Of a stretch of 64,000 bases of DNA, positions 3,230 through 62,868 are shown piece by piece. The stretch lies in the IMG/VR virus record IMGVR_UViG_3300031784_000003; one strand, 5' to 3'. The translations under genes were made by a program, and so were the position numbers. Within the stretch, counting starts at the first letter, position 1. The number at the start of each line of letters is the position of its first letter. The notes beneath the pieces were generated by a model. It was not told the origin of the DNA and did not search any database. It was given only the letters and a program-made list of their open reading frames with translations. This stretch comes from a virus (taxonomy: Duplodnaviria; Caudoviricetes).

Positions 3230-4019
3230 TATAGATGTTATTTTTTATTTTATTTTCCCAATAAACAAAATCTAATTTTTCAGTATTCCATTTACTATTT
3301 ATAATCCTTTCATACTCATCATTTAAAAATTCTTCTGTGATTTCACTCCATTCATTTACAAAACAAATAGGTAAATCTTCGTAAAACCTATTATTTTTAT
3401 TCCTTTTTTCAACTGGTATCGATCCAACATATAAAGTTTCCCAAGTCCTATGAGTATCGATACCATTACCTTCAGGACATAAAACAAATTTATGGTTATG
3501 GATATTATGTAAATAATTATCAAAATTATGACCATTGATACCATTTTCTAATGTAACCCATTTTTTATCTTTAAAAATGTTATAAGGTTCTATTCTTTGG
3601 GAGGGGTTAGTATTTATATTATGACAAACATATAATGTGTTTTTATAATATTTTTTTTGTTCAGATATTTTAATTATCTTATCTAACTTTTTTAGATTAG
3701 TAAACCACATACTATTTTCTAAACCTATAGGTATGGATTCTATTTTATCATGAACCACATCAATATTTTGACCATACCATTTAATTAAATTATCAGGTAT
3801 ATTAATTTTATTTATATCGCAATCATTACTACTACCACTATCAAATCTTTTTGGTGTTTCAGTAACCGATCCATCACTATTATGTGTAATTAAAATAAAA
3901 TTATTTTTAGGTGGGTTAACAAAAAAATCAAATACTTCATGTGTATGACAATAAAAAATTTTTTCATTATCACATAAAGAAATAAAATTTTCACCCTTTA
4001 TATATTTTTTTATTGCCAT
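3219..4019 (-). CDS. Exostosin/GT47-like glycosyltransferase
   Basis: ITHNSD, IPIGLEN, KFVLCPEGNGIDTHRTWETLYVGSIP. Confidence 0.65.
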   Translation of the reverse strand: MAIKKYIKGENFISLCDNEKIFYCHTHEVFDFFVNPPKNNFILITHNSDGSVTETPKRFDSGSSNDCDINKINIPDNLIKWYGQNIDVVHDKIESIPIGLENSMWFTNLKKLDKIIKISEQKKYYKNTLYVCHNINTNPSQRIEPYNIFKDKKWVTLENGINGHNFDNYLHNIHNHKFVLCPEGNGIDTHRTWETLYVGSIPVEKRNKNNRFYEDLPICFVNEWSEITEEFLNDEYERIINSKWNTEKLDFVYWENKIKNNIYNEN

Positions 4020-4801
4020 GAATTATACCATAAATGTATACAAATAGTTTTTTCTGTATTATAAGAATAAATATAATCTTTTAAATCGTCAAACCTACCC
4101 CTAATTTTGTGTCTCTCTGTGGCGGGTAATGGATAAAAGTATGGTGTTGGTAAAACAACTATATCTTCATCTTTTTGACTATTAATATAGTTAAAAAATA
4201 CTGTAGAGAAAAAGTATGGTCCAGTATTATTCATAATAGTTTCATGATTATTATTAGAAACGTCAATATTTTTAAAATTATCATACAACAAATTTAATAA
4301 ATTTTTTAATAAATTGTTATTTTTTGTTGCACCTATTAAACCATTAAAAACCATAGGTTCTCTAGAATGTCCTACACCCGTAAAAAAATCATTTTTTAAT
4401 AACGAATCAAAAGAAGTAACCATCTCAAAATCACTATCCAAATAGATACCACCTTCTCTGTATAGAATTTCATATCTAGCAACATCAGATTTACTACCAT
4501 AATTAGATAAATTGTCGTATAATTCCCTATTAATCATAGGGTAATCCCTTAAATCCTCTTCACCCCAAAGTTTGTATTCCCATTCAGGATGGTTTTCAAT
4601 TATTTTAGGTATTAATTGTTTATGTTCTTTAGGCATATCACCTATCCATATTTGATGAATTTTTTTTGGTATTTTATCAACTTTATTACCACTATTTTGA
4701 AATTTATTATAAAGTTCTTCTATAATATCCCAGTTCCCGTTCGGAACAACATTCCAATGACTTATTAAGTCACACCCCATTAGTTTTTTAAAAGATTCCA
4801 T
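4010..4801 (-). CDS. GT32 (Och1/TcdA-TcdB DXD-type) glycosyltransferase
   Basis: KIPKKIHQIW, SDVARYEILYREGGIYLDSD, HLW near C-terminus. Confidence 0.85.
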   Translation of the reverse strand: MESFKKLMGCDLISHWNVVPNGNWDIIEELYNKFQNSGNKVDKIPKKIHQIWIGDMPKEHKQLIPKIIENHPEWEYKLWGEEDLRDYPMINRELYDNLSNYGSKSDVARYEILYREGGIYLDSDFEMVTSFDSLLKNDFFTGVGHSREPMVFNGLIGATKNNNLLKNLLNLLYDNFKNIDVSNNNHETIMNNTGPYFFSTVFFNYINSQKDEDIVVLPTPYFYPLPATERHKIRGRFDDLKDYIYSYNTEKTICIHLWYNSWQ

Positions 4802-13694: not shown

Positions 13695-15094
13695 ATCATA
13701 ATTTTATTATCTATTACGTCAAAATTTTTAGTTATTATTCTTTGATATAACTCCATATGGTTTTTATTTGCTTCAGTGGATACTGTCCCATCATTTTCAT
13801 GATGAAAATAGACAAATAATGGTTTTGGTATTCTTTTACCAACATAACCCTCTTTCATCATTCTAATCCACATATCATAGTCTTCCCAACCAATCATCTC
13901 TTCATCATAACCGTTAACTTTTTCAAACGATTCTCTATGGAACATAGAACAATTAACTATAAATGGGCCTTGTAATAATCTTTCTTTACTCCATTCAGGT
14001 CTTTTTTCTACACCTTGCGTTTGCCCAACATGATGTGTATCACAATACACTGGACTGATTTCTTTATTTTTTGTTAATATATTTACACAAGATCTAATAT
14101 AACCATCTAAAATCATATCATCAGAGTCTAATGGTAATATATATTCACCTTTAGAATGTCTAAACGCCTCATTTCTTGCAGATGAAGGTCCACCATTTTC
14201 TTTATAAACAACCTTAATTTTTTCTACATTTTCTAATTGTTTAAGTTTCGTCTTAACAAACTCATCTGTAGATCCATCATCCACTAAAATTATCTCAAAA
14301 TTGGTGTAATCTTGGTTAAATACAGAATTTAATGTTTGATTAATCCTATTACCATAATTGTAAATCGGCATCAAAATAGATACTAGTGGTTCTTTATCTT
14401 TTACTTTTTTAATGTTATATGTATACGGAATAATTTTAGGTAAACTTTCTTTATATTTCCCCACAAATTGAATTCTATTATCTTCCCATTGTTGGTTTGT
14501 TTGTCCGATAGATAAATGAGTTACCGCTATATCTGAAATAACACCAATATTAACACCGTTTAAAAAATTATTAAAACAAAAATCTATCTCATAAAAATGA
14601 AATCCTTTGAAATTTTCGTCAAAATCTTTAACAATATTATTTTTATTAACCGCAAAAAACAAACCGTCAACTATAATAGTATCTTCTATTTTATTACCAA
14701 ATGATTCATTATATTTTGATAACCATTTTCTACCTTCATGTTGGTGGTAGACTTGTCCAATAACTTCAGTCATACCATAATCCCACCATCTACCTGAAGA
14801 CGGCATATATTTAGTTCCTGCCTTACCAATAATACCATAATTAGGATTTCTTTTGAAGTGATTCAATATCTTATTACCCCAATTTTTAGTTTCCAAAATT
14901 ATGTCATCATGACAAAAAACCACAATATCATTTGTGGTTTCTTTTAAGGCTTTATTATAAATTTCTGTTAGAGAATATTCACCATTGTTTATATATTGAA
15001 TAACCTCCATATCTTTGTAGATACCAGAGGTTACCATTATATGTTCTTTATGTTTTGGATTATCTTCTCTAGTTGAGAATACTACACTAATCAT
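13691..15094 (-). CDS. Two-domain glycosyltransferase (GT2-like N-domain + GT2 C-domain)
   Basis: N: IYNKAL..VFCHDD, VDGLFFA, FHFYEID; C: VSILMPIYN, LVDDGSTD, ARN, PLDSDD, WEDYD. Confidence 0.85.
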   Translation of the reverse strand: MISVVFSTREDNPKHKEHIMVTSGIYKDMEVIQYINNGEYSLTEIYNKALKETTNDIVVFCHDDIILETKNWGNKILNHFKRNPNYGIIGKAGTKYMPSSGRWWDYGMTEVIGQVYHQHEGRKWLSKYNESFGNKIEDTIIVDGLFFAVNKNNIVKDFDENFKGFHFYEIDFCFNNFLNGVNIGVISDIAVTHLSIGQTNQQWEDNRIQFVGKYKESLPKIIPYTYNIKKVKDKEPLVSILMPIYNYGNRINQTLNSVFNQDYTNFEIILVDDGSTDEFVKTKLKQLENVEKIKVVYKENGGPSSARNEAFRHSKGEYILPLDSDDMILDGYIRSCVNILTKNKEISPVYCDTHHVGQTQGVEKRPEWSKERLLQGPFIVNCSMFHRESFEKVNGYDEEMIGWEDYDMWIRMMKEGYVGKRIPKPLFVYFHHENDGTVSTEANKNHMELYQRIITKNFDVIDNKIMI

Positions 15095-15230
15095 TTTTTA
15101 AACTATTATAATATTTTCTTATTTCATTACCTAATGTTTGATCATTAGGAAATTTTAAAATCATTTCTAAAATATGAAAAGAATCAATCTTTTTTGATAA
15201 TTCATATTTTTTAGGATCAATGTTTACCAC
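15087..15230 (-). CDS. Small hypothetical protein (47 aa, GTG start)
   Basis: Manual translation MVNIDPKKYELSKKIDSFHILEMILKFPNDQTLGNEIRKYYNSLKND; fills the gap and overlaps both neighbours. Confidence 0.5.
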   Translation of the reverse strand: MVNIDPKKYELSKKIDSFHILEMILKFPNDQTLGNEIRKYYNSLKND

Positions 15231-15792
15231 TTGATCCGAAACCTGTGTTACCTCTTTCTGTTTCATTTAATTTATCTACTTTGATTAAATCTGATATACC
15301 TTGACCTACTACATTCATTATCACACCTTGTGCAATTCTTTCTCCTGGCTCTATAGTATATTCTTCGTTACTTAAATTAATTACTATAATACCTACATCA
15401 CCTCTATACCCTTCGTCTACAGTACCAGGTGTGTTTAATACTGAAATACCGTGCTTCAATGCCATACCACTTCTAGGTCTAACTTGTAATTCAGTATTAG
15501 ACGATAATTCAAACTTTAAACCAGTAGGGATTAATTTTCTTTCTAATGGTTTTAATGTTATAGGTTTATCTATAAATGCTCTTAAATCAAAACCACTATC
15601 CCCTACTTTAGCATATTCAGGATCAGGATTATTTGAACTATTAGTGAATTTAGTTTTTATCTTAAAATAATCAATATTAACATCTAATAAATTCTTACTT
15701 TCGACAGATTCTATATGTGACATTAATGATTGTAATTCTTCTAATTGTCTAAGTTCTTCTTCAAAAGAAGAGTCTAAATCGTTTACTTCCAT
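15217..15792 (-). CDS. dut: Trimeric dUTPase with acidic N-terminal extension
   Basis: SGFDL, RPRSG, GTVDEGYRG, RIAQ, RGNTGFGSSG motifs. Confidence 0.95.
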   Translation of the reverse strand: MEVNDLDSSFEEELRQLEELQSLMSHIESVESKNLLDVNIDYFKIKTKFTNSSNNPDPEYAKVGDSGFDLRAFIDKPITLKPLERKLIPTGLKFELSSNTELQVRPRSGMALKHGISVLNTPGTVDEGYRGDVGIIVINLSNEEYTIEPGERIAQGVIMNVVGQGISDLIKVDKLNETERGNTGFGSSGKH

Positions 15793-16355
15793 TATTTATT
15801 TTTTTTACATTCTATTATTGATAATTCATTTGCCTGTTTTAAAAGTGTAGATAATGTTGAACCATACCATTTAGATTGTTTATCATCTTCCGATTTATCA
15901 AAATTAATAATTGACTGATATTCTTCTTCAGTTAAACTAACACCATAAGTTAATGCATAATATGCGGATCTTTCACCTACTCTCATAGAAATAAGATCCT
16001 CATTAAAGTCATACATTTTACCTGCATTTTTTCTATGCCATTCAGATTCACAAAATTTAAATAAGAATGTCTTACCTATTTGGTGTAAAAAACATACCTT
16101 AATTATTGATTTTTTGTCCACTCTTAAATTTTCAGGTAAACTTTCATTTAATATTACCGCATATTTTGTAACTTTCAAAATATGATCAATCAAACCACCT
16201 GGAAAGGCATTATACATACTTTCCATATTTGATGCTGGTGCAGTAAACAAATCTTCTCCTAAAAATTCTAATAAAGAATGAGTAAAAGTTTCATTGGACT
16301 GGCAAGTCTTCTCAAACTTTTCTCTATTCTTAATAATTTTTTCTTTTAGTTCCAT
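15792..16355 (-). CDS. HD-domain (YhaM-like) protein
   Basis: APAS, FPGGLIDHILKV, CFLHQIGK (HD replaced by HQ). Confidence 0.65.
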   Translation of the reverse strand: MELKEKIIKNREKFEKTCQSNETFTHSLLEFLGEDLFTAPASNMESMYNAFPGGLIDHILKVTKYAVILNESLPENLRVDKKSIIKVCFLHQIGKTFLFKFCESEWHRKNAGKMYDFNEDLISMRVGERSAYYALTYGVSLTEEEYQSIINFDKSEDDKQSKWYGSTLSTLLKQANELSIIECKKNK

Positions 16356-48717: not shown

Positions 48718-51567
48718 ATGGCATCAACAGACAGAATTTTTGTGAGTCCTGGGGTTTTTACTTCTGAAAAGGACTTAACATTCGTAACTAGACAAGTTGG
48801 GGTTACTACATTGGGTTTATTAGGTGAAACACCTAAAGGTCCAGCGTTTGAACCAGTCTTCATTTCTAATTACGATGAATTCATTAGTTATTTTGGTGGG
48901 TTAAATCCTGAAAAATTTAAGGCTAATGGTTTTAATAAGTATGAATTAAATTATATTGCAAAATCATATCTAACCCAAACTAATCAATTATATGTAAGTA
49001 GAGTTTTAGGTTTATCAGGTTATAAGGCAGGAAATGCTTGGTGTATCACATTAGATTCATCAGCTGACCCATCTACTACGGCTATTACTAATACAACATC
49101 TTACGCACTTTTATTAACGTATTCTGCTACAACTGCAGGTACACCAGTTTCAGTGACATTCAACTCACCTGTTTTAACATCACTTTACAATGATGGACAA
49201 ATTGATGGGTTATTTACTTCGGTAGGGTTACTTAGTGTAGGGGATAGTATTTCAATCACTGATCCAGAATATGTAAAAACAGGATCTAGTTTTAGTGGTG
49301 CTACTTTTGATATGGAAGTTATCACTAAAGGAAGTGGTGGTTCGGGATATGTAACAGGAACAACTAGTGGTACTGTTGTCACATACACTGCCTCTGCTTA
49401 CGCAGATATTGATGGTAGTGTTATCGCTACTTTAAGATCTAGAGCTTCTTATGATGGTACAGAAACATTAACATATGAAGTAACTGGTGCAACTGATACA
49501 GTTATGACAAATACTTCGTTTATTACATCTGATCCATTAGCATCATTTAATATTACAGGTACAACTTATAATGGTAACACCTTCAACTATGAAGTTTCTT
49601 TAGATAGAACTAAAAAGAATTTCTTACCGAGAGTATTTGGACAATCTACACAAGATAAAGAAACAGAATTATTCGTTGAGGAAATTTATGGAAATGTATT
49701 AGAAGATTTAATAAGTGCTGGTAAAGTAAGAGGATTAGATACTTCATTTGTAAACATTGGTTCTACAACTACAAATAACTTAAATAACTATTTAGAAGGT
49801 TGGAAAACTGCAGTATCTCCTTGGGTTCTTTCAGAAGTAAAAGGTACAGGTGCAGGATCGACATTACAAAGATTATTTAGATTTGTAACAATATCTGATG
49901 GTAACACTGCAAACAAAGATGTTAAATTTTCAATTATAAACATTCAACCAGATAATAAAACATTTGACTTATTAGTAAGAAAGTATGGTGATACGGATGC
50001 AAATCCTAACATAGTTGAGAAATATTCATCACTTTCTATGGACAGTAATTCAAGTGGATATATTGCTAGAAAAATAGGTACAACTGATGGAGAATTTCCA
50101 TTAAGAAGTAAATATATAATGGTAGAACTTTGGGACGGTAACGATCCAGATTTAGGAAACCACTTCCCTGCAGGGTTTGAAGGTTTCTTAAATAGAACAT
50201 ATATTGGTTCTAACAGAACGGCATTACCACCAAAAATAGAATATAAAACACAATATAACGATTTCAACACATCTAAATTAAGAAAAACTTATTTAGGTTT
50301 AAATAGTGATATCGGTGTGGATCAAGACTTCTTTAATTATAAAGGTGTAAATGCAGTTAACAATGGTGTTTACACAGGAAGAACGGCAGGATTCCACTTA
50401 GATGTTAACGCAACTAATTCATTAATCGATTTAGGTTCTGAAAGTTATGTTCCTACACTACAAGTTGGTATATCAGCATTTACTACAGACCTTTCTTTAA
50501 TAGGTGGTCCATATGAAAAAGTGGCAGCGAGAAAATTCACATTCACATCTTATGGTGGATGGGACGGATGGGACGAATACAGAACCAAAAGAACTAACGG
50601 TGATTCATACACTAAGGCAGGAACAAAAGGAGCATTAGGTTTATCTAAAGGATTATTTAATACATTTGTAACTTCTGAAGGTGATGAAGGTATTACTTCT
50701 GATTACTACGCATTTTTAAATGGTATATATACTTATAACAATCCTGAGGCAGTAAATATTAACGTATTCGCAACACCAGGTATTGATTTAAGAGATAACA
50801 TCAGTTTAGTTGAAAATGCAGTTGACGTAATAGAAAACGATAGAGCGGATTCATTGTATATTATTACAACACCAGATGTTGATTCAGATGGTTTAGCAAT
50901 ATCTGCAGATGAGGCAGTATCTATAGTTGAGGATTCTGGTATCGACTCAAATTATTCCGCTACATACTGGCCTTGGTTACAGATGGTAGATAGTGAAAAC
51001 AATAGATACGTTTGGATACCACCAACAGTAGAAGTTGTTAGAAATATCGCATTAACAGATAACGTAGCGTTCCCTTGGTTCGCAGCAGCAGGTTTAAACA
51101 GAGGTACAACTACCGCAGTTAAGGCTAGAGTAAAACTTAAATTAGACGATAGAGATGATCTTTACGCTGGTAGAATTAACCCTATGGCAACATTCTCAGA
51201 TGTAGGTGTGGTGATATTTGGTAACAAAACATTACAAGTTAGAGAAAGTGCACTTAATAGAATAAACGTAAGAAGATTATTACTACAAGCAAGAAAACTT
51301 ATTTCCGCAGTATCTATCAGATTACTATTCGAACAAAATGATGCGGTTGTTAGAAACCAATTCCTAAGTTTAGTAAACCCTATTTTAGATAACATCAGAA
51401 AAGAAAGAGGTTTAACTGATTTTAGAGTAACATTAGACGATACACCTGAATCTATTGACAGAAATGAATTAAATGGTAGAATTTTTATTAAACCTACAAG
51501 ATCATTAGAATTTATCTCAATAGAGTTTAACATTACTAACACAGGTGCAAGCTTTGATAATATATAA
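48718..51567 (+). CDS. Contractile tail sheath protein (T4 gp18-like)
   Basis: SPGVFTSEKD, GETPKGPAFEP, YWPW, WFAAAGLNRG, INPM, GNKTLQ, LNRINVRRLL, LFEQND, FIKPTRSLEFI. Confidence 0.96.
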   Translation: MASTDRIFVSPGVFTSEKDLTFVTRQVGVTTLGLLGETPKGPAFEPVFISNYDEFISYFGGLNPEKFKANGFNKYELNYIAKSYLTQTNQLYVSRVLGLSGYKAGNAWCITLDSSADPSTTAITNTTSYALLLTYSATTAGTPVSVTFNSPVLTSLYNDGQIDGLFTSVGLLSVGDSISITDPEYVKTGSSFSGATFDMEVITKGSGGSGYVTGTTSGTVVTYTASAYADIDGSVIATLRSRASYDGTETLTYEVTGATDTVMTNTSFITSDPLASFNITGTTYNGNTFNYEVSLDRTKKNFLPRVFGQSTQDKETELFVEEIYGNVLEDLISAGKVRGLDTSFVNIGSTTTNNLNNYLEGWKTAVSPWVLSEVKGTGAGSTLQRLFRFVTISDGNTANKDVKFSIINIQPDNKTFDLLVRKYGDTDANPNIVEKYSSLSMDSNSSGYIARKIGTTDGEFPLRSKYIMVELWDGNDPDLGNHFPAGFEGFLNRTYIGSNRTALPPKIEYKTQYNDFNTSKLRKTYLGLNSDIGVDQDFFNYKGVNAVNNGVYTGRTAGFHLDVNATNSLIDLGSESYVPTLQVGISAFTTDLSLIGGPYEKVAARKFTFTSYGGWDGWDEYRTKRTNGDSYTKAGTKGALGLSKGLFNTFVTSEGDEGITSDYYAFLNGIYTYNNPEAVNINVFATPGIDLRDNISLVENAVDVIENDRADSLYIITTPDVDSDGLAISADEAVSIVEDSGIDSNYSATYWPWLQMVDSENNRYVWIPPTVEVVRNIALTDNVAFPWFAAAGLNRGTTTAVKARVKLKLDDRDDLYAGRINPMATFSDVGVVIFGNKTLQVRESALNRINVRRLLLQARKLISAVSIRLLFEQNDAVVRNQFLSLVNPILDNIRKERGLTDFRVTLDDTPESIDRNELNGRIFIKPTRSLEFISIEFNITNTGASFDNI

Positions 51568-52419: not shown

Positions 52420-55400
52420 ATGAATAGATTATTTTCAGAAAAAGAAGTTAAAAAATTAAAAAATTTTATAGGTAAAAGTCTAATTACTGAACAAGGTGTA
52501 GGTAGAAGACTTGCAGATGCGTTAGAAGACGCAACATCTGCCGTTTCTAAGGCAATTAAAAATGTTGACCCAAAATTAGCCACAAACTTTTTAAATACTG
52601 AGATTAAAAGTTTTGATGATATTTCAAAACATTTAAACGATTATAAATCTATATGGAAAGCTATGGGTATAGATTGGGATTATACGAATAAGGCAATTAC
52701 AAATTTTAAAAAATGGTCAGATACTGGATTTTTAAAAACCGCAGATGAAAAGTTAATTTTACAAGTTATTAATGACTTACCAACTGAAGGGGATTTAAGA
52801 GGGATTGTTTTTGACTTATGGAAAAAAAGTAAGGGTACATACACACCAAAAAAACCTAAATCTAAATCTGTTGTTGTTAAAAACAAAAAAACTGGACAAA
52901 ATATAATTCAAAAAACAGAAAACAATCAAGTAAAAAATTATGAGGTAGATAATAACGGAAAATTATCTGAAATAAGTGATTCTGAATTAGATTTAGAACT
53001 AGATTCTAAAGAAAAACCAGAACAAGTTGCGGGTGTAAAATTGGATGACATACCAAAAGATGAATGGGATATTATTGATGCGTCATTTAAAAAATATGGT
53101 TTTGAAAATGATTGGGGTTTTGACCCTAACACAGGAGAACCTGTATATGTTATATTGCAAATAGGTGGAGAAAAAGTAAAATTTAGTTTAAATAAATATG
53201 GTCCTGAAGCATATGATAATCTTAAAATTAGTGATGATAATTTAATAGAAAAATTTAATGATGAATATGAAAAAACTTTTGAGAATACCAGTTGGATGGA
53301 TAAACCATCTAGGGAAGATTGGGTTAAAAAAGAAAAAATATTAAAGGACCCTAAATTAAGGGAAAAATATGTTAATAGATATGATGTTTCATTAGGTGTT
53401 AAATTGTGGGCAGATGAACCTAATGGTGACTGGGGTATTTGGGTTATCGCAAACCCTACAGAAATAAAAAATTATAGGAAAACAATCACACCAGAGGATT
53501 TAAAAAATGCTATATTACATACAGTTTATCACGAATTGACTCACGTTAAACAAAAACCTGGTCAACATAGTAATTTATCGTATGGTTCTGGCGAATTTAA
53601 AACTACTGAACATGCTTGGACTTATTTAAATTTTAAAAGAGATAAATCCACTAAAAGATATTCTTTTGATGAAAAAGAAATATTTAACTTTTGGGCATGG
53701 CATAAAGAAGATCCTGTTAAAGCGGAAGAACTTATTGCAGATTTTGGTGACGAAAAAGGGATTGACACTAGTTTAGATTATAGTTGGAGAGACGATTTTT
53801 ATGAGTGGGGGAAAGAAAAAAATATTTTTGACGAAAAATTTATTACAAAAAATAAAATTAAAAAACAAATTGATTCATATACTTACAAAAGAAACCTTTT
53901 TAGTGATGACGTTAAAGTAAGATCATTAAAATTGAGTATTGATAGATTTTCTAAAAGTGATAGTAGATTTAAAAAAATAAAAGAGACTACAGATAATTTA
54001 AACGATAAAGAATTTTTAAAATTTATAAATGATAATATTAATATACCTGAAATTGAGAAGGTTGTAAATGATGCTGCATATGAATTGAGTTATTGGAGTA
54101 ATGTTAAAGAAATAGAAGCCGAATTTGGGGCTAATATTAAAACTTTAATGGAATTAGGTACTTTAGAAAAAAATAAAGGTTTTGCCACTTTCTTAGTGGA
54201 TTATTTAAGAGGTACAAATAAATCTCAAAAACTGGCAGATATTGATGTAGCAAAACAAAAAAACTATATGGATACTATGCATCCTATGGTAAAAACTGTA
54301 AAAAAAATAGATAGTAGTGTAGATTCATTAATAGAATTTTTCAAAACATATATAAATAAATTTTTAAATAAAAATGTTACTGATAAAGTAAAATTAGAAA
54401 AAGAATTAACTGATGTAGGTGAGTGGGTTAATAATATACCTGAAGATTTTTTCGCAGTATTAGGAAAATTAGAAAACAGATGGAAAAAGGTATACCCTGA
54501 ACAAGCAAAAAAGATTGAGAAGGATTTATATAAACAGGCATACAATTTAATTTCTAAAGGTTATCCAGCGTTATTACCATTTATTGTTAGTGGTTTATCT
54601 GATGATGAAACTGAAGATAATAAAAATAAAAATGAATCTATAGTTTATAAAAAACATTATATAACTGAATCTTTTAAAAAAACTTATTCATTCGATTGGG
54701 ATGACAATATATTAAAAATGCCAACGAGAATTCATTTAGAATATAAGGTTGGTGGTTTACACTGGGTACCAGTTTCAGTGTCTACAGAACAATTTAGATC
54801 CATTAGACATAAAGTAGGGACAGAATTTAGGTATTTAAATGACAATGTATTAGACGCATTTAAAGATTTTAGAGAATATGAATCATTTATTAGAGATGTT
54901 AAATATGCGTTAGACAGTAGAAATTTTGGGCCTAGTTTTAATGACTTTAAAGAGGCGTTAATTAATGGTGAAGATTTTTCTATTATAACTGCGAGGTCAA
55001 ATTCACCCCTATCTTTAATTGATGGTATTAAATTATTGATAGATAAAAACTTTTCTTATAGAGAAAAAGATGAGATGGAAAAAAATCTTAATGGTACATC
55101 AATCAATGACTATCTTAAAATTCAAGATTATCATCCAGTATCTTCAAAAGAATTTTTAAAAAGTTTTAATTTAGATTTAAGTGGATCTAATCCTGAAAAA
55201 GGTAAAGAAATCGCCTTCAGAAGTTTTGTTGACCGTATAGTAAAACAAATAGACAATATAATAGACGATCCTAATTTTGAAGGTATAAGTGTGGGCTATA
55301 GTGACGATGATTTAAAAAATTTAGAGATAATAGAAAATTTAATTAGAAAAGAATTGAGTATGAAATACCCTAAAATAAAATTTAATGTCTATGACACATC

Positions 55401-55446
55401 TGACCCAAATAATCCGAAAAAGAAAAGAATTGTAATAGAAAAATAA
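52420..55446 (+). CDS. Multidomain protein: leader + shared 125-aa module + HExxH metallopeptidase-like + HAD-like domain
   Basis: LITEQ; YHELTHVKQ; later KEIEAE; ITES then FDWDDN (HAD motif I), IITAR (II), GYSDDD (IV). Confidence 0.7.
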   Translation: MNRLFSEKEVKKLKNFIGKSLITEQGVGRRLADALEDATSAVSKAIKNVDPKLATNFLNTEIKSFDDISKHLNDYKSIWKAMGIDWDYTNKAITNFKKWSDTGFLKTADEKLILQVINDLPTEGDLRGIVFDLWKKSKGTYTPKKPKSKSVVVKNKKTGQNIIQKTENNQVKNYEVDNNGKLSEISDSELDLELDSKEKPEQVAGVKLDDIPKDEWDIIDASFKKYGFENDWGFDPNTGEPVYVILQIGGEKVKFSLNKYGPEAYDNLKISDDNLIEKFNDEYEKTFENTSWMDKPSREDWVKKEKILKDPKLREKYVNRYDVSLGVKLWADEPNGDWGIWVIANPTEIKNYRKTITPEDLKNAILHTVYHELTHVKQKPGQHSNLSYGSGEFKTTEHAWTYLNFKRDKSTKRYSFDEKEIFNFWAWHKEDPVKAEELIADFGDEKGIDTSLDYSWRDDFYEWGKEKNIFDEKFITKNKIKKQIDSYTYKRNLFSDDVKVRSLKLSIDRFSKSDSRFKKIKETTDNLNDKEFLKFINDNINIPEIEKVVNDAAYELSYWSNVKEIEAEFGANIKTLMELGTLEKNKGFATFLVDYLRGTNKSQKLADIDVAKQKNYMDTMHPMVKTVKKIDSSVDSLIEFFKTYINKFLNKNVTDKVKLEKELTDVGEWVNNIPEDFFAVLGKLENRWKKVYPEQAKKIEKDLYKQAYNLISKGYPALLPFIVSGLSDDETEDNKNKNESIVYKKHYITESFKKTYSFDWDDNILKMPTRIHLEYKVGGLHWVPVSVSTEQFRSIRHKVGTEFRYLNDNVLDAFKDFREYESFIRDVKYALDSRNFGPSFNDFKEALINGEDFSIITARSNSPLSLIDGIKLLIDKNFSYREKDEMEKNLNGTSINDYLKIQDYHPVSSKEFLKSFNLDLSGSNPEKGKEIAFRSFVDRIVKQIDNIIDDPNFEGISVGYSDDDLKNLEIIENLIRKELSMKYPKIKFNVYDTSDPNNPKKKRIVIEK

Positions 55447-55517
55447 ATTTTTTAAAAAATACAATATTTATATAATAAATAATACAACTAATAAAAAGAA
55501 ATTAAAAAAAAATTAAG

Positions 55518-56006
55518 ATGGCTGATTTATTAATGAGAATGCCTGTTCCTTACGAACCACTAAGAAAGAATAGGTTTATTTTGAGATTTCCAGATGAATT
55601 GGGAATTCAAGAATGGTGGGTATCTACAACTAGCCGACCAAAATATACGAGTCAAGAGGTGGAGATACCTTTTTTAAATACTTCTACATATGTGATTGGT
55701 AGATTTAACTGGGAATCAATCTCTGTAACTTTTAGAGACCCTATCGGACCTTCTGCGACACAAGCATTAATGGAATGGGTTCGTTTACACTCTGAAACTG
55801 TAACGGGTAGACAAGGTTATGCTGCGGGATATAAAAAGGACGTAGAGTTAGAAATGTTAGACCCAACAGGTGTAGTAGTTCAAAAATGGATTTTACAAGG
55901 AACTCAATTAAATGATGTGGATTTCGGTGGATTAGATTATTCATCTTCTGATTTGGCAGATATCACTGCAACACTTAGATTTGATAGAGCAATTAACGTA
56001 TTCTAA
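55518..56006 (+). CDS. Tail tube protein (T4 gp19-like)
   Basis: YEPLRKNRFILRF, WESISVTFRDPI, GYKKD..L.MLDP.G..VQKW.L.G, TLRFD. Confidence 0.9.
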   Translation: MADLLMRMPVPYEPLRKNRFILRFPDELGIQEWWVSTTSRPKYTSQEVEIPFLNTSTYVIGRFNWESISVTFRDPIGPSATQALMEWVRLHSETVTGRQGYAAGYKKDVELEMLDPTGVVVQKWILQGTQLNDVDFGGLDYSSSDLADITATLRFDRAINVF

Positions 56007-56027
56007 TTTCATATAAAACTTAAATAT

Positions 56028-56056
56028 AAAAATCCCATTATTCAATGGGATTTTTT
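56028..56056 (+). terminator. Intrinsic terminator after tube gene
   Basis: AAAAATCCCATT-ATTC-AATGGGATTTTTT. Confidence 0.85.
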
Positions 56057-56107
56057 GTTTTTATTTAATATTTATTTATTAGAATAATTATATATAATAA
56101 AAAAATT

Positions 56108-57201: not shown

Positions 57202-59049
57202 ATGAGTAAAAAAATTTTCATAACAGAAAGTCAATATAATAGAATTTTTAGTGGTGACAATTTTTTATTTGAAGCGGATGATAAAAAGGATGCTGAAAAT
57301 GCTAAAAAATTTTTAAGAAGTATTGGTTGGCCTAACGATATAATAGGTGGATCGTTATCACAAAATCATGTTTTTGCACAATCAGTATTAAATGCATTAA
57401 AGCAATTAAATAATGTTTATATTGCAGAAAAGGTAATCACTGGTACTAAGGGTAAATATGATGTTTGTATCTCTAAACCAGGATTAGGTACTTGTAATGT
57501 TGCGGCTGGAGGTAGTCTATATGCAGCAAAAGACTTTAGTGATTTAGCAAATAAAATTTCTAATAAGACTATTGGTGATAATAGGGCTTCTGATATCGCT
57601 AACAATGACACAGTATACTTTCAATTCGGTAAATTACAAAATGAATTAAATACGGCTTTCAAATATGATAAATATGCTTGGAAGTCAGAATATTTTCCTG
57701 ATGGGTGGTGGAATTTTTTTAGTACATATTTTGGTACAGATAATTATACACAAATAAAAAATAGAATACAAAAAATCCAACCTTATAATATTAATTACAA
57801 TAAAAGTACTTTAAATCAATATGAAAAGGGTACTAGTCTTTGGAATTACATATCAGATTGTTTTACTGATTTTCATTGTGCGATGGATGTTGCCTCTATT
57901 GCGGTTTTAGCAATACCAGGAGTTGGAATGGCTTTAAGTGCGGGTATAGACTTTGCAAATGCAGCCACATATGGTGTTGATGCGTATAACGCAAAAACAA
58001 AAGAAGAAAGAGACGCTGCAATTATTGCAGGTGGATTAACTCTTTTTGGTGGATTTTTAGGTGGTGGTATTGGACAAACAAAAAGAATTTTAACTAAAGG
58101 TAGTGCAAATCCAAAAGTTTATAGATATGCTGATGATGTCATTAAGAGAATCGATGACGAATTACCATTACTTAGAGATGTAAAAACTAATGTAAAAAAC
58201 CAAAAATTAACAACCATTTATAAAGAAACTGCCGAAAAATATGGATTAAAAGATTCAGAAATATTATTAGGTCATGATATTATAGATGATTTCGCAAAAA
58301 TTGATCCTAAAGTTGCAAAAATTTATAGTGATGCTTTAACCACTATAGAAAGTAAGATAGGTAGGGCTAATTTATTGACAGTTGCTAAAAATAAAAATTT
58401 TAAAAATCTTGTCTTACAAAATAATGGTGATGTTGTAACATCACTAAAAGCGTTTATGAAGACTACTGCAGGTAAGGAGGCATTACAAGAATTAGGGATG
58501 TTTGTAATTCTTTCAGAAGTATTATCTGAACCAACAGTTGCAAAATGGTTAAGTGATAAAATTAATCTAATACAACATAGTTTAAAACCAACTGTTCAGA
58601 CTACTATTAAAAATGATGGTTATGATTGGAAGACAACTAAAGAAATATTTTTTTCTGATGGTTCTACTAAAGATAATACTTTACTTTTAAAGGCATATGA
58701 AAAAGGTTGGAGACCTTGGACTAAAAGTGAAGAATTACCAAATGAAGAGGAGATGCAAAAATCTAGAGAGTGGTTATCTAAAAATCCTAGTTTCCAAACT
58801 AAAAAATTTAAAGATTGGTTGTCTACACAAGCTTCTGAATTAGGGAAAGAAAGTCTTAGTGGTAAAGAATCTTTAGGTGTAGAAATGACACCTGTTGACG
58901 CAAAAGACAGAAAAGAAAATGTGAGGTACGCTGATACTAAAGAAGAGATGGACGCTTTAAAACCTGGGATAGATGATGGTAAAAGTGGTGAGGAGGCAAT
59001 AGATTTGTTAGATAAACAACTAGAAGAATATTTAAAAAGTCAAAAATGA
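57202..59049 (+). CDS. Protein with ITES leader and pre-toxin-TG-like hydrophobic segment
   Basis: IFITESQYNRI; H..MDV..IPGVG..ID.ANA..Y..A..GG segment. Confidence 0.6.
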   Translation: MSKKIFITESQYNRIFSGDNFLFEADDKKDAENAKKFLRSIGWPNDIIGGSLSQNHVFAQSVLNALKQLNNVYIAEKVITGTKGKYDVCISKPGLGTCNVAAGGSLYAAKDFSDLANKISNKTIGDNRASDIANNDTVYFQFGKLQNELNTAFKYDKYAWKSEYFPDGWWNFFSTYFGTDNYTQIKNRIQKIQPYNINYNKSTLNQYEKGTSLWNYISDCFTDFHCAMDVASIAVLAIPGVGMALSAGIDFANAATYGVDAYNAKTKEERDAAIIAGGLTLFGGFLGGGIGQTKRILTKGSANPKVYRYADDVIKRIDDELPLLRDVKTNVKNQKLTTIYKETAEKYGLKDSEILLGHDIIDDFAKIDPKVAKIYSDALTTIESKIGRANLLTVAKNKNFKNLVLQNNGDVVTSLKAFMKTTAGKEALQELGMFVILSEVLSEPTVAKWLSDKINLIQHSLKPTVQTTIKNDGYDWKTTKEIFFSDGSTKDNTLLLKAYEKGWRPWTKSEELPNEEEMQKSREWLSKNPSFQTKKFKDWLSTQASELGKESLSGKESLGVEMTPVDAKDRKENVRYADTKEEMDALKPGIDDGKSGEEAIDLLDKQLEEYLKSQK

Positions 59050-59234
59050 TAGTTTTAGAAATACAAAAAAAAATAGATGATATAAAAAATAGGTTAGATG
59101 AAATTAATAATCTATTTGATATTTATAATATAAATGATGAAGAAAGTATGAATTATTTTATTAATGAAATACAATCTTATAAAGAAGAATTAAAAAAAAT
59201 AAGTGATGAAAAACTTAAAAGAACAAATAAGTAG
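59046..59234 (+). CDS. Small coiled-coil hypothetical protein
   Basis: ORF track; ATGA overlap with upstream gene; overlaps next gene by about 30 bp. Confidence 0.4.
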   Translation: MIVLEIQKKIDDIKNRLDEINNLFDIYNINDEESMNYFINEIQSYKEELKKISDEKLKRTNK

Positions 59235-59877
59235 AATAAAAAATCTAATGTTATTATCTGAACAATGTGGCACTGATTTAAATCAATGTGAAGAAGATTT
59301 AGAAAATAAAGGATATAAGGTTTTTAGTCCTACTGAAAGTAAAAATATTTGTGACGATAATGAAAACATACAATGTTTAGAATCATCATTCTCATCATTA
59401 AGTGGAAAATTAAGTGTTAGTTCTGCAGGAAACTCTGTTAAAGATTGTTTTGTACTATTAAAGAGTAATCATCAAACAATGGGAATACCAACGTTTCATT
59501 TTACTTTTTATTCTGACGGTCAAGTCGTTTTATCATTTTTATTAAATGAAAATAATGATAAAAAGAAATTAGTGTATAGATCTAAATATGAATGTAGTGG
59601 TGGTTCTGTAGATATTAAAGGTGGTGCGGGTTTTAAATATATTGGTGTTAAGTCAGGAAACGTAGTTAAGGCAGAAAATATAACTTTTATTAATGATAAT
59701 AATAACAATGTTGTACTTAATGATGCTCAGGCAGTTAAAATGGAACTTAAAAGTGGAGAATTAAAATACCAAGATGTTTTAACATATTATATGAATAGAG
59801 CTGGATTATATACAGGAAATGTTTTAAATAAAGGATTACCATATAATCAAATAGTGGCATTATTAACTCATACATAA
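59203..59877 (+). CDS. Hypothetical protein with LKEQ..LLSE leader
   Basis: MKNLKEQISRIKNLMLLSEQ. Confidence 0.7.
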   Translation: MMKNLKEQISRIKNLMLLSEQCGTDLNQCEEDLENKGYKVFSPTESKNICDDNENIQCLESSFSSLSGKLSVSSAGNSVKDCFVLLKSNHQTMGIPTFHFTFYSDGQVVLSFLLNENNDKKKLVYRSKYECSGGSVDIKGGAGFKYIGVKSGNVVKAENITFINDNNNNVVLNDAQAVKMELKSGELKYQDVLTYYMNRAGLYTGNVLNKGLPYNQIVALLTHT

Positions 59878-59889
59878 AAAAAAATAAAT

Positions 59890-62052
59890 ATGAAAAAAAG
59901 ATATACTAATTTAAATGAAGAAGTGAATAGAATTAAATCTCTATTTACTGAAGAAAGGTTATATGGTAATTTAAAAGAAAATAAATTATTAACTGAGCAA
60001 GGTATAGGTAAAAAACTTGCAGATGCGTTAGAAACTGCAAGTTCTTCTGTTTCTAAGGCAATTAAAAATGTTGACCCAAAATTAGCCACAAATTTTTTAA
60101 ATTCAGAAATCAATACTTTTGATGACTTAGCGAAACATTTAAACGATTATAAATCTATATGGAAAGCTATGGGAATTAATTGGGATTATGCGAATGACGC
60201 AATTTTATCATTTAAAAAATGGTCAGATACTGGATTTTTAAAAAGTGCAGACGATAAATTAATTTTACAAGTTATCAATGATTTACCTGTGGAAGGTGAT
60301 TTAAGAGGTATGGTATTTGATTTATGGAAAGATAGTAAAGGAAAATATACCCCACCTAAATCAAAAAATCAGACTACTATTGTTAGTAAATCTAATAAAG
60401 GTGAAAATGTTATCCATAAAGTAGAAACTGTTGGTGGTAAAGAAAAAATTGAGACTTACTCAATAGAGAGTGATGGGATTAAAAAAGATGACGGTTACGA
60501 CCCAAATAGGGCTAGTGAAGAAGTTAATTCACATTTTGATGGGGATGATTTAGTTTCTGGTGGAGGAAGTAGTAAAATCACTACTGATGTGTTAAATGCT
60601 AAAGGTAATCCAGATAATATAAAAGGTGAAATTATAAATGCTATTGAGGAAGGATTTAATAAAATATCAGGTAGAGGTGGTAAACAAATGACTTCTGATG
60701 AAATTGTTGAACAGATTAAAAATGGGGGAGTTTTAATGGTAAAACGATCTGATGGTTCTTATAGAGTAATAAATACTATAGAATTAATAGAAATGGAAAT
60801 AGATCAAAATTTGGATATAACTAACATAAAAAGTATTGGTAAAAAAGATGTAACACCACCAGTTAATGTTCCACCAGTTAAAGATGGTGGTGAATCAGTA
60901 GATGTACCTACAGACGGTGGTAGAAATGGAAGTAAAAAATCTAAAAATAATTTTTCTTCAAATATTGGTAACATAATTGGACAAGGTTTCAGATATGTGT
61001 TCCCAACAGTTAGTGAAATATTAAAACGTGTATCTTTATTAGGTCCAGGTAGTAAATTTTATTCTAAACAAAGATTTAGTATTGTCGATTCGAGATTTCC
61101 AACAGAAGGAGGTTATAATAAACGAGCTAACAAGATTTTGAAGGGTTTGTTGGAAAACCCTGCAAGAATATTGTTTGTAGAACAAACTGCTTTAATTACT
61201 ATTGTTGGTATAGCAAAATCAATCGAAAGAGGAACACTACCTAAAGATGAAGAAGCTATAAATACTGCAATTGCAGATTATAAGAATAGTGAAATATGGA
61301 AATACAGTGTACCGTATTTATTAGCGGGTACACTTGCCGATGTCTATCAGAGGATTATTAATTTAAGAAAAATTAGTTACGCTTCTTGTAGAAGTAAAGC
61401 AGAAAAAAAATTAAATCCTAATGATCCTCTTTATGAAATAAAGAAAAAGGAAGTTGAAGTGGAAATTGAAGCGTGTAAAGATGAGGTAGACTCATTTTTT
61501 GATAAAATTGATGCTTTTGGAAAAGACTTTACTAAATTTAAAAAAGAATTTGCCGACCTTAGTAATATAGATCAATGGGATCAATCAAAAATAGAAAAAT
61601 TTTGTGAAGAAGATTTAGCGGATAAACAAGAGGTTTTGAAAAATTTGAGGGTTAGTTTAACTAATTTAGATGATGAAATAAAAAATCGATTTAATACAGA
61701 TGACATTAAAAAAAGAGAATATATTGTTACTATAATTAATACTTTGAAGAACGTTATGCCTGCGTTACCTGAATTACCTACTCCAGAAGAAGTAATTAGT
61801 CAATTAATGCCTAAAACGGAAATTAATGGTAAAAAAATAACCCCTTTAGATATACAAGGGTTAGAAACTAAATTAAACGCAGCATGTGCTGAATACTGGA
61901 ACAAAAAAAGAGATGTTCAAGATCAAATAGTTGATCCAGATGATTATGAACAACCAATAGATACAATTAATGTTGACCCTGACACTAAAGAAAGTTTAGA
62001 CGCAGATTTTGGTATGATAGAAGTAATTGTAGAACCAATAGAAATAGTTTAA
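59890..62052 (+). CDS. Mosaic protein: 56108-type leader + 52420-type 125-aa module + unique C-terminus
   Basis: LNEEVNRIKSLFTEERLYG, then LLTEQGIGKKLADALE...; hydrophobic stretch in C-terminal half. Confidence 0.7.
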   Translation: MKKRYTNLNEEVNRIKSLFTEERLYGNLKENKLLTEQGIGKKLADALETASSSVSKAIKNVDPKLATNFLNSEINTFDDLAKHLNDYKSIWKAMGINWDYANDAILSFKKWSDTGFLKSADDKLILQVINDLPVEGDLRGMVFDLWKDSKGKYTPPKSKNQTTIVSKSNKGENVIHKVETVGGKEKIETYSIESDGIKKDDGYDPNRASEEVNSHFDGDDLVSGGGSSKITTDVLNAKGNPDNIKGEIINAIEEGFNKISGRGGKQMTSDEIVEQIKNGGVLMVKRSDGSYRVINTIELIEMEIDQNLDITNIKSIGKKDVTPPVNVPPVKDGGESVDVPTDGGRNGSKKSKNNFSSNIGNIIGQGFRYVFPTVSEILKRVSLLGPGSKFYSKQRFSIVDSRFPTEGGYNKRANKILKGLLENPARILFVEQTALITIVGIAKSIERGTLPKDEEAINTAIADYKNSEIWKYSVPYLLAGTLADVYQRIINLRKISYASCRSKAEKKLNPNDPLYEIKKKEVEVEIEACKDEVDSFFDKIDAFGKDFTKFKKEFADLSNIDQWDQSKIEKFCEEDLADKQEVLKNLRVSLTNLDDEIKNRFNTDDIKKREYIVTIINTLKNVMPALPELPTPEEVISQLMPKTEINGKKITPLDIQGLETKLNAACAEYWNKKRDVQDQIVDPDDYEQPIDTINVDPDTKESLDADFGMIEVIVEPIEIV

Positions 62053-62088: not shown

Positions 62089-62868
62089 ATGGAAAATTCA
62101 AATAATATTTTAGACCCAAATTATGTACCTGAAGATTACAAGGTACCTTATGATATAATAGAATTACCTTCACAAGGTTTATTATACCCTAATAAAAAAG
62201 CGCAAGTTAAAGTAGAATATTTAACTGCATATGATGAGAATATTTTAACATCCCCAAACATTTTGGCGAATGGTAAAATTATAGATGTTCTTTTAGAAAG
62301 AAAAGTTAAAGATTTAGGTTTCGACCACAAACTTTTATTAGAAGGTGATAGAATGGCAATAATATTATTTTTAAGAGTGTCTGCATTTGGACCTATTTAT
62401 CTACAACCAGTAATTGATCCAATAAGTAAAAAAATTGTGGAGGGTGAAGTTGATTTAACTCAATTACAAAATAAAAAATTACTTGTAAAACCAGACGAAC
62501 AAGGGTTATTTGATTTCATTTTACCTACTTCTAAAAAGAATATAAAATTCAGATTTCTATCAGGAAAAGATGAAGAAGAAATTGACATTTTAGATAATCA
62601 ATTAATGGAAAGAAATAAAAATGAAATTTCTAATAGAACTACATTAAGGTTAGAAAGATTAATTATGGATATCGATGGTGAAAGAGATAAAATAAAAATA
62701 TCTAATTTACTAAAGGCATTACCTATTATGGATATTAGAAAATTAAATAAATATATTTCTGAAATCGAACCAGGAGTAGATTTCAAAACTAGCGCTAGGA
62801 CTCTGGGGGGAGAGTCCGTTACTACCTTTCTTAGAATCAATAAAAATTTATTTTGGCCTGACATCTAA
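62089..62868 (+). CDS. Baseplate hub/tail assembly chaperone (T4 gp26-like)
   Basis: IELPSQG..Y, YLTAYDENILTSPN, GDR.AI..FLR..FG, KFRFL.G.DE; lies upstream of probable tape measure. Confidence 0.7.
   Translation: MENSNNILDPNYVPEDYKVPYDIIELPSQGLLYPNKKAQVKVEYLTAYDENILTSPNILANGKIIDVLLERKVKDLGFDHKLLLEGDRMAIILFLRVSAFGPIYLQPVIDPISKKIVEGEVDLTQLQNKKLLVKPDEQGLFDFILPTSKKNIKFRFLSGKDEEEIDILDNQLMERNKNEISNRTTLRLERLIMDIDGERDKIKISNLLKALPIMDIRKLNKYISEIEPGVDFKTSARTLGGESVTTFLRINKNLFWPDI

Follow-up and report, generated by a model that had tools for sequence, protein, structure and literature searches.

The internal proteins of phage T4 (IPI-III, Alt) bear capsid-targeting propeptides that the prohead protease gp21 removes; to our knowledge, none of them contains a hydrophobic hairpin. 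The pre-toxin segment PT-TG of LXG/WXG and other polymorphic toxins has an IPxxG-like start. PMC13483458 describes PT-TG as a poorly ordered region, placed between the trafficking and the toxin domain, of which AlphaFold gives poor models and which has been proposed to act as a linker or to interact with the envelope; its hallmark is a loop of 15 residues in which Gly, Asp, Arg and TG are conserved. The MuF toxins of temperate phages follow polymorphic-toxin principles, are associated with the particle and are predicted to be packaged in the head (PMC3482391, Table 1); and the DNase Tde1, an effector of the type VI secretion system, requires a GxxxG glycine zipper to permeabilise the target's cytoplasmic membrane and enter prey, but not to be secreted (PMC10240207). 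Here we describe a protein with likenesses to several of these systems. It is encoded in a 64,000-nucleotide stretch of viral DNA (Caudoviricetes; IMG/VR record IMGVR_UViG_3300031784_000003), referred to below, at its full length, as the window, which is AT-rich (~28% G+C) and has the gene content of a large T4-like myovirus. The protein, 615 amino acids (aa) long and encoded at 57202-59049 (the window protein), carries a predicted particle-targeting leader and a hydrophobic hairpin for which profile comparisons show homology to a pre-toxin segment found in polymorphic toxins of bacteria. Neither capsid-targeting tags nor pre-toxin domains are new kinds of feature; what is new is the shared hydrophobic hairpin that joins them.

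The window protein and its parts are as follows, with model confidence given as the predicted local distance difference test (pLDDT) and a caret marking the end of a leader.

57202..59049, + strand: window protein, an open reading frame (ORF) of 615 aa, member of a family from uncultured T4-like (jumbo) phages
57202..57273, + strand: leader (residues 1-24), ..ITESQYNRIF..LFE^A, predicted prohead-protease propeptide or particle-targeting tag
57280..57816, + strand: N-terminal globular domain (residues ~27-205), the variable part, pLDDT mostly above 90
57859..58080, + strand: hairpin (residues 220-293), a Cys/His cap C220..D223.H225C226 and a Gly/Ala-rich helical hairpin with IPxxG, D..NA..Y and a glycine zipper
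57886..57951, + strand: arm 1 of the hairpin (residues 229-250), flanked by D229 and D250, with a kink at I238-P-G-V-G242
58012..58074, + strand: arm 2 of the hairpin (residues 271-291), with the glycine zipper G283xxxG287xxxG291, then basic QTKRILTK
58081..58881, + strand: conserved all-alpha C-terminal domain (residues 294-560), with invariant G502-W-R-P505 at 58705-58716

The peptide to which a first-pass annotation of this DNA had drawn attention is indeed encoded in frame +1 and corresponds to H225-G291 (57874-58074). Kyte-Doolittle averages over 19 aa peak at 1.89 within residues 226-252 and at 1.71 within residues 271-291, and a scan of the entire protein found no further 19-aa span above 1.2, so that insertion of the hairpin into a membrane is plausible on hydropathy. 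The hairpin is also the best conserved part of the family: in an alignment of 25 relatives, with identity down to 27%, 16 of the 26 invariant columns fall within residues 223-293, a mere 12% of the length, which sets it far from a chance effect of composition, and H225, D229, S232, P239, G242 and Y257 are each at least 90% conserved among 109 relatives. Distant members have a shorter version, approximately H..(I/L)D(V)..SI..L.IP..G..IS.G.E..NA.LY..EGD....LS.....IPGG. AlphaFold models the full-length protein with a pLDDT of 78 and the hairpin with one of only 34-68, dividing it into helices 224-236, 242-262 and 267-280, with arm 1 broken at IPGVG. Foldseek found no match to the full-length model in the PDB at E<=0.001, and the VIA wide search gave Z<=6.8; structural matches to the hairpin model are generic helical hairpins and bundles only, which does not of itself make the fold new.

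The family to which this hairpin belongs is sizeable but has so far gone without a name. A word-seeded search returned 83 cluster representatives related to the window protein, and a profile search of 1.84 billion representatives (50% identity) returned 271 family members, 69 of them with E below 1e-30, on metagenomic contigs of up to 282 kb. No family in Pfam, PHROG or NCBIfam matches the window protein; neither it nor three distant relatives has a homologue among GenBank phages (50,697 records), and a sequence search of the PDB yielded no relative. Many of the relatives align only to profile positions ~232-630, that is, to the hairpin and C-terminal region, which in them is preceded by unrelated sequence, 35 to 850 residues long. 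What the family conserves as its core is the hairpin plus C-terminal domain, and its variable part is the N-terminal domain; with the N-terminus variable and the C-terminus conserved, the family is built the opposite way round from a polymorphic toxin. The same separates it from the MuF toxins, in which the C-terminal toxin varies and an immunity gene accompanies it; a Pfam scan of the window protein detected no MuF domain. A minimal member, P0239 (392 aa), consists of a leader of the YDRS type, the hairpin, a helical region or linker and a C-terminal PG_binding_1 domain with endolysin-type PHROG matches, which ties the hairpin to the cell envelope.

A single-sequence scan of genome contigs had as its sole match a phage contig in a Prochlorococcus single-cell assembly. 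This 51-kb contig, QCKH01000012.1 (locus L023), has the same tube-to-hub gene block as the window (see below) and encodes a short-type hairpin protein of 391 aa, identical to P0137, the window protein being of the long type. The phage was probably co-sorted with, or infecting, the Prochlorococcus cell, and hints at a marine branch of the lineage.

Homologues of the hairpin outside phages were identified and compared with the help of three alignments: A3, of all 50 phage hairpins; A4, of the 24 short-type ones; and A5, of 19 bacterial segments. The A4 profile matched two ORFs among 301 cyanobacterial genomes, both in the same genome (E 2.6e-7 and 2.2e-4 per genome), the best match elsewhere having E 3e-3. 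The first is a 262-aa protein comprising the hairpin and a C-terminal domain of ~150 aa without Pfam toxin match. Directly downstream lies a SUKH-1 (SMI1_KNR4) immunity protein (Pfam E 3e-10), and upstream an acidic helical protein of 327 aa with weak similarity to WXG100.

L026:390-2844, cyanobacterial genome G296, - strand: three-gene toxin locus encoding the 327-aa protein, the 262-aa hairpin protein and SUKH-1

These three genes are a classic toxin-immunity locus, and the C-terminal domain of the 262-aa protein may be a new toxin domain. The second match is an 877-aa protein made up of Peptidase_S8, the segment, LysM and a C-terminal domain; searching with its segment retrieved 35 bacterial proteins, with the consensus HxxLDVAGFIPxxGxxADxxNAxxYxxEGDxxNAAxS...PGxGD. 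Their layouts are those of polymorphic toxins delivered in different ways: Peptidase_S8-segment-LysM-Ntox5; eCIS_core (DUF4157, PVC metallopeptidase)-segment-AHH nuclease; RHS repeats-segment-short C-terminus; segment-Ntox1; and segment-PT-HINT-RHS. Two Rhs proteins, P0267 and P0268, have the segment starting ~29 residues past DPLGL, which we take to be the mark of Rhs C-terminal autoproteolysis, with only ~115 residues after it; its place shortly beyond DPLGL puts it at the head of the released toxic fragment.

Direct comparison of the alignments with hhalign gave a probability of 98.4% for A4 against A5 (E 9.5e-15, score 73.9 over 59 columns), 97.8% for A3 against A5 (E 7.4e-13, score 63.9), and 96.9% (E 1.3e-10, score 54.3) when the 27 long-type hairpins, including that of the window protein, were aligned with A5. 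Scores were far lower in controls that preserve composition: column-shuffled versions of A5 (n=150 and 100) averaged 9.5 and 10.1, with standard deviations of 2.3 and 2.1 and maxima of 18.7 and 17.1, and a reversed alignment scored 12.2. Reciprocally, a search with A5 of an assembly containing a short-type phage contig (G002) had the hairpin gene as its only match (E 1.6e-5). Together these comparisons show that the phage hairpin is homologous to the pre-toxin segment of polymorphic toxins.

The two versions share the order of their conserved residues (His, Leu-Asp, IPxxG, Asp/Glu, Asn-Ala, Tyr, Glu-Gly, a Ser/Thr in arm 2, and a second (I/V)PG), and in both a basic stretch comes next. They differ in that the phage hairpin has four extra hydrophobic residues on each side of IPxxG in arm 1 and a Cys-x-x-Asp-x-His-Cys cap, to which the subtype of the window protein adds a charged loop of 11 residues between the arms. 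Of the phage hairpins, 96-100% exceed a hydropathy of 1.6 in a 19-aa span, against 53% of the bacterial ones; with its lengthened arm 1 and, in the window's subtype, the inter-arm loop, the phage version is the more membrane-like of the two. The context differs as well. Behind the phage hairpin lies a conserved all-alpha domain and not a polymorphic toxin, and downstream there is no member of a known immunity family. No model in Pfam or NCBIfam covers or names the bacterial segment, and term searches of PMC13483458 and PMC3482391 turned up no mention of such a segment or of a phage-toxin link; nor did we find it described in phage proteins.

By HMM search this segment does not belong to PT-TG, to which the first-pass annotation had likened the hairpin, proposing a search with the family's hidden Markov model (the HMM) as the check. 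Membership of PF14449, the PT-TG family, is set by a gathering score of 23.5 bits; reported down to E<=10, its HMM matched neither the whole window protein nor excised segments of 91 and 82 aa, none of 10 short-type relatives, none of 50 excised hairpins of the family, and nothing in a six-frame search of G001, a 254-kb relative of the window, while a B. subtilis control was positive. Nor did it match the bacterial carriers of the homologous segment, and PT-TG sequences were found neither in the 301 cyanobacterial genomes nor in phage SPBc2. PT-TG has its hallmark loop rather than a hydrophobic hairpin (PMC13483458). On inspection, alignments A1 and A3 lack a conserved TG or Arg and instead conserve H, D, S, P, G, D, N and Y within hydrophobic helices. 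On these HMM results we reject membership of PT-TG, retaining from the original proposal, which took the pattern LD..IP..G..D..NA..Y as characteristic of pre-toxin segments, that the pattern does belong to a segment of polymorphic toxins, though not to the one Pfam calls PT-TG.

What follows the hairpin in the window protein does not resemble a toxin. Modelled alone, with 79 relatives, residues 295-615 form a confident all-alpha structure (pLDDT 84.9) for which the VIA wide search of the PDB gave Z<=6.0, BFVD no match at E<=0.001 and the ESM atlas TM<=0.25; the fold matches obtained are generic helical ones only, and do not for that reason make the fold novel. ESM Atlas feature searches with the N- and C-terminal parts gave no usable match. 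The models offer no support for a toxin or an enzyme at the C-terminus, and a Pfam scan of nine long relatives recognized no domain whatever, toxin families included.

The C-terminal domain also contains a motif, DGSxxDNxLLxxAWxxGWRP, at A1 profile positions 484-545 (window residues ~476-537, 58627-58812), which is also found, alone, close to the C-terminus of many otherwise unmatched proteins of 250-400 aa (such as P0170, P0183, P0187 and P0197); this region may be a separate small module.

The gene for the window protein is tightly coupled to a small one downstream.

59046..59234, + strand: 62-aa ORF, acidic and helical, overlapping the stop of the window protein by 4 nt (ATGA)

In every long-type locus examined (L003, L005, L006, L008, L012-L015, L017, L018, L020) an ORF of 53-64 aa with an invariant Tyr begins between -11 and +9 nt from the upstream stop; no such ORF follows the short-type genes of L022 and L023, the two short-type loci examined. 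The 62-aa ORF is a real, co-inherited gene, and its product, to judge from the conserved coupling only, most likely serves the long-type proteins as a dedicated partner or chaperone. It matches no immunity family in Pfam or PHROG.

These observations bear on the most literal toxin interpretation, in which a PT-TG module precedes a toxic C-terminal effector and the 62-aa ORF encodes its immunity protein. Homology of the hairpin to a segment of genuine polymorphic toxins would suit it, as would a small, closely coupled downstream gene of the sort seen in toxin-immunity pairs. Against this, PF14449 finds no match, and the C-terminal 320 residues, where polymorphism would be expected of a toxin, are conserved, the variable region being N-terminal; the domain has neither a toxin nor an enzyme fold, the nine long relatives no Pfam toxin family. 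The small ORF, besides lacking an immunity-family match, is missing downstream of the short-type genes, whose C-terminal domain is the same. We consider this interpretation very improbable: the C-terminal effector predicted by the first-pass annotation gives way to a conserved helical domain, and of what it said of the 62-aa ORF the close coupling is upheld, and conserved, whereas an immunity function receives no backing from known families.

The same annotation had described the protein as bearing a leader, and this is borne out: the window protein starts MSKKIFITESQYNRIF..LFE^A, its leader ending L22-F-E24, in the form hydrophobic-x-Glu. Three types of tag were distinguished in 85 of 109 relatives, ..I(S/T)ESQYxRxF(LNE^Q).. 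in 75, ..NLNEExNRIKSLFTE.. in 3 and ..LRLxxYDRSxxLxE.. in 7; that the same protein can carry any of three types means that the tags are interchangeable. Related tags open the neighbouring 363-, 224- and 720-aa proteins of the window, and in G001 at least 13 ORFs of 95-685 aa, spread from 3 kb to 230 kb, are tagged, most of them small and the majority far from tail genes.

3469-4459, 15011-15982, 55324-56088, 63077-64803 and 225860-229725 of G001: examples of its tagged ORFs (L041-L053), with leaders ..ITE.QF.+LI.E.. and ..NLTEE..R.K.LM..

The tag is thus genome-wide in G001. This relative, though not the 64-kb window itself, also has the gene for a prohead protease of T4 type (Peptidase_S77 PF03420, E 4.4e-24), beside acidic scaffold-like and gp23 genes, and its gp23-type capsid protein has an N-terminal ..ALLNE^STS.. 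ahead of a conserved IVRR block. The arrangement recalls the T4 internal proteins, in which unrelated proteins likewise share a short N-terminal tag ending in hydrophobic-x-Glu and in whose genome, as in that of G001, a Peptidase_S77 protease and a gp23-type capsid protein are encoded; the tag here is about twice as long and of three sequence types, the gene stands in the tail module, and packaging is a prediction. From these sequence features we infer cleavage of the leader and packaging of the protein.

Two other tagged or leader-bearing proteins of the window deserve mention. Those of 1008 and 720 aa (52420-55446 and 59890-62052) have a common module of ~125 aa after their leaders, and the 1008-aa protein has in addition an HExxH motif and a DWDD (HAD-like) motif.

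The reading that we favour, with moderate confidence, is that the window protein is processed by the protease and delivered by the virion, and that its hairpin inserts into or permeabilises the cytoplasmic membrane of the host. A T4-type prohead protease would probably recognise and remove the leader of ~20 residues, and a leader so recognised implies that the protein is probably packed into the particle and released, along with the DNA, into the host. The hairpin would most likely be the part that inserts into or permeabilises the membrane: once the protein has been released at the host envelope, both Gly/Ala-rich arms would enter the cytoplasmic membrane, where the inserted hairpin might serve as an anchor for the protein or assist the passage of attached domains or DNA. 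By analogy, the homologous segment of toxins would carry the toxin domain over the target membrane. Tde1 of Agrobacterium provides a likeness in that a Gly-rich GxxxG segment lies outside its catalytic domain, and arm 2 of the phage hairpin carries GxxxGxxxG; in Tde1 the motif is N-terminal and binds the adaptor (Tap1), and the likeness is one of motif, with no sequence relationship claimed.

Two hydrophobic segments followed by a basic stretch would also befit an inner-membrane protein that never enters the virion but is made late in the infected cell, perhaps to exclude superinfecting phages, to time lysis or to remodel the envelope, with some other purpose for the leader; and the virion association of the window protein is itself a prediction. 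We nevertheless regard such a role as improbable, for the N-terminus is, by inspection, a charged helical shared tag unlike a signal peptide, enzyme-bearing proteins, among them the HExxH protein of 1008 aa, carry the tag as well, and the gene is embedded among virion genes and co-oriented with them.

The virion genes in question include those of the tail, and the window also encodes a family B DNA polymerase.

48718-51567: sheath gene (phrog_23)
55518..56006, + strand: tail tube gene (phrog_4542, E 1.3e-25)
59203-59877, + strand: 224-aa ORF with a GTG start, overlapping the 62-aa ORF by 32 nt
62089..62868, + strand: gp26/gp51-like baseplate hub gene (phrog_150, E 1.3e-5; PF12322 weak in L003)

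The order of genes around the hairpin protein is kept: tube (162 aa), a protein X of 200-435 aa, the hairpin protein and the small ORF, then proteins of ~200-228 and ~500-724 aa, the gp26/51-like protein, and proteins of ~160, ~50 and ~650 aa. This order holds from 86% identity down to 27-37%, in freshwater and marine contigs. Such a strict position in very divergent relatives, the contig of the Prochlorococcus assembly included, would be natural for a component of tail structure or assembly, whether a pilot within the tube lumen or associated with the hub, beside the tape measure, or a membrane-anchored scaffold of the hub; the hairpin would then be an oligomerisation core or an anchor in the membrane of the producing cell, not a device for the target cell. 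The length and largely helical nature of the protein agree with this; hydrophobic hairpins are a feature of tape-measure and pilot proteins, T5 pb2 for one, and the assembly of the T4 hub is reportedly membrane-associated. Other evidence points away from the tail. The ~650-aa ORF past the gp26/51-like gene is a separate and more usual candidate for the tape measure than the hairpin protein, though PHROGs on the neighbouring genes supply no name for either; the leader is common to many small proteins across the genome, remote from tail genes, and ends in the motif found at the propeptide junction of the capsid protein; and we know of no T4 tail protein that is processed by the head protease. 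Homology to a toxin segment delivered by several routes also argues against a structural role specific to tails, and on balance we judge a tail component rather unlikely.

Within this block, the 224-aa ORF is conserved in all relatives and belongs to no family. Its N-terminus, NLKEQISRIKNLMLLSEQ, resembles a tag, and a conserved motif rich in Cys, CG.DL..CEEDLE..GYKVF, comes immediately after it. Scanning the window for the T4 late-promoter consensus, TATAAATA, produced 28 matches where 27.7 were expected, no excess in this AT-rich DNA.

Several considerations weigh against a virion-delivered, membrane-active protein. Packaging, cleavage and membrane insertion are all inferred, there being no cultured relative among GenBank phages, and the constant position within the tail module would suit a role in the tail or hub equally well. 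The hydrophobic-x-Glu motif is short and frequent by chance. The helices modelled for arm 1, of 13-21 residues and low confidence, appear too short to span a bilayer singly; and the bacterial homologues are less hydrophobic, with an Asp conserved in arm 1, so that membrane spanning may not be ancestral. Finally, A5 alone gives the window protein a score of just 10 bits and has zero matches in the close relative G001; in view of this weak direct score, the link between the window's subtype and the bacterial segments depends on the profile-profile comparison together with full-length homology to the short types.

Phages and polymorphic toxins probably share one element that, from its predicted function, would be a membrane-entry device. 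That the hairpin is a portable and self-sufficient translocation device, exchanged between phages and toxins of several routes (Rhs; the extracellular contractile injection systems, eCIS/PVC; subtilase-LysM), is a possibility we raise tentatively. If it is so, phage proteins and toxins would cross or open the target cytoplasmic membrane alike, and the hairpin proteins of this phage lineage would make up a new class of virion proteins that are ejected, act on membranes and have a small chaperone dedicated to them. The question bears on how toxin fragments of Rhs and eCIS type, and large phage-borne proteins, cross the inner membrane, for which a well-defined element of ~60 residues, common to toxins and tagged phage proteins, offers a mutable target. 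The label 'pre-toxin TG' does not cover the hairpin motif, which deserves a profile of its own; such a profile would improve the annotation of toxins as well as that of the many dark late genes found in aquatic jumbo phages.

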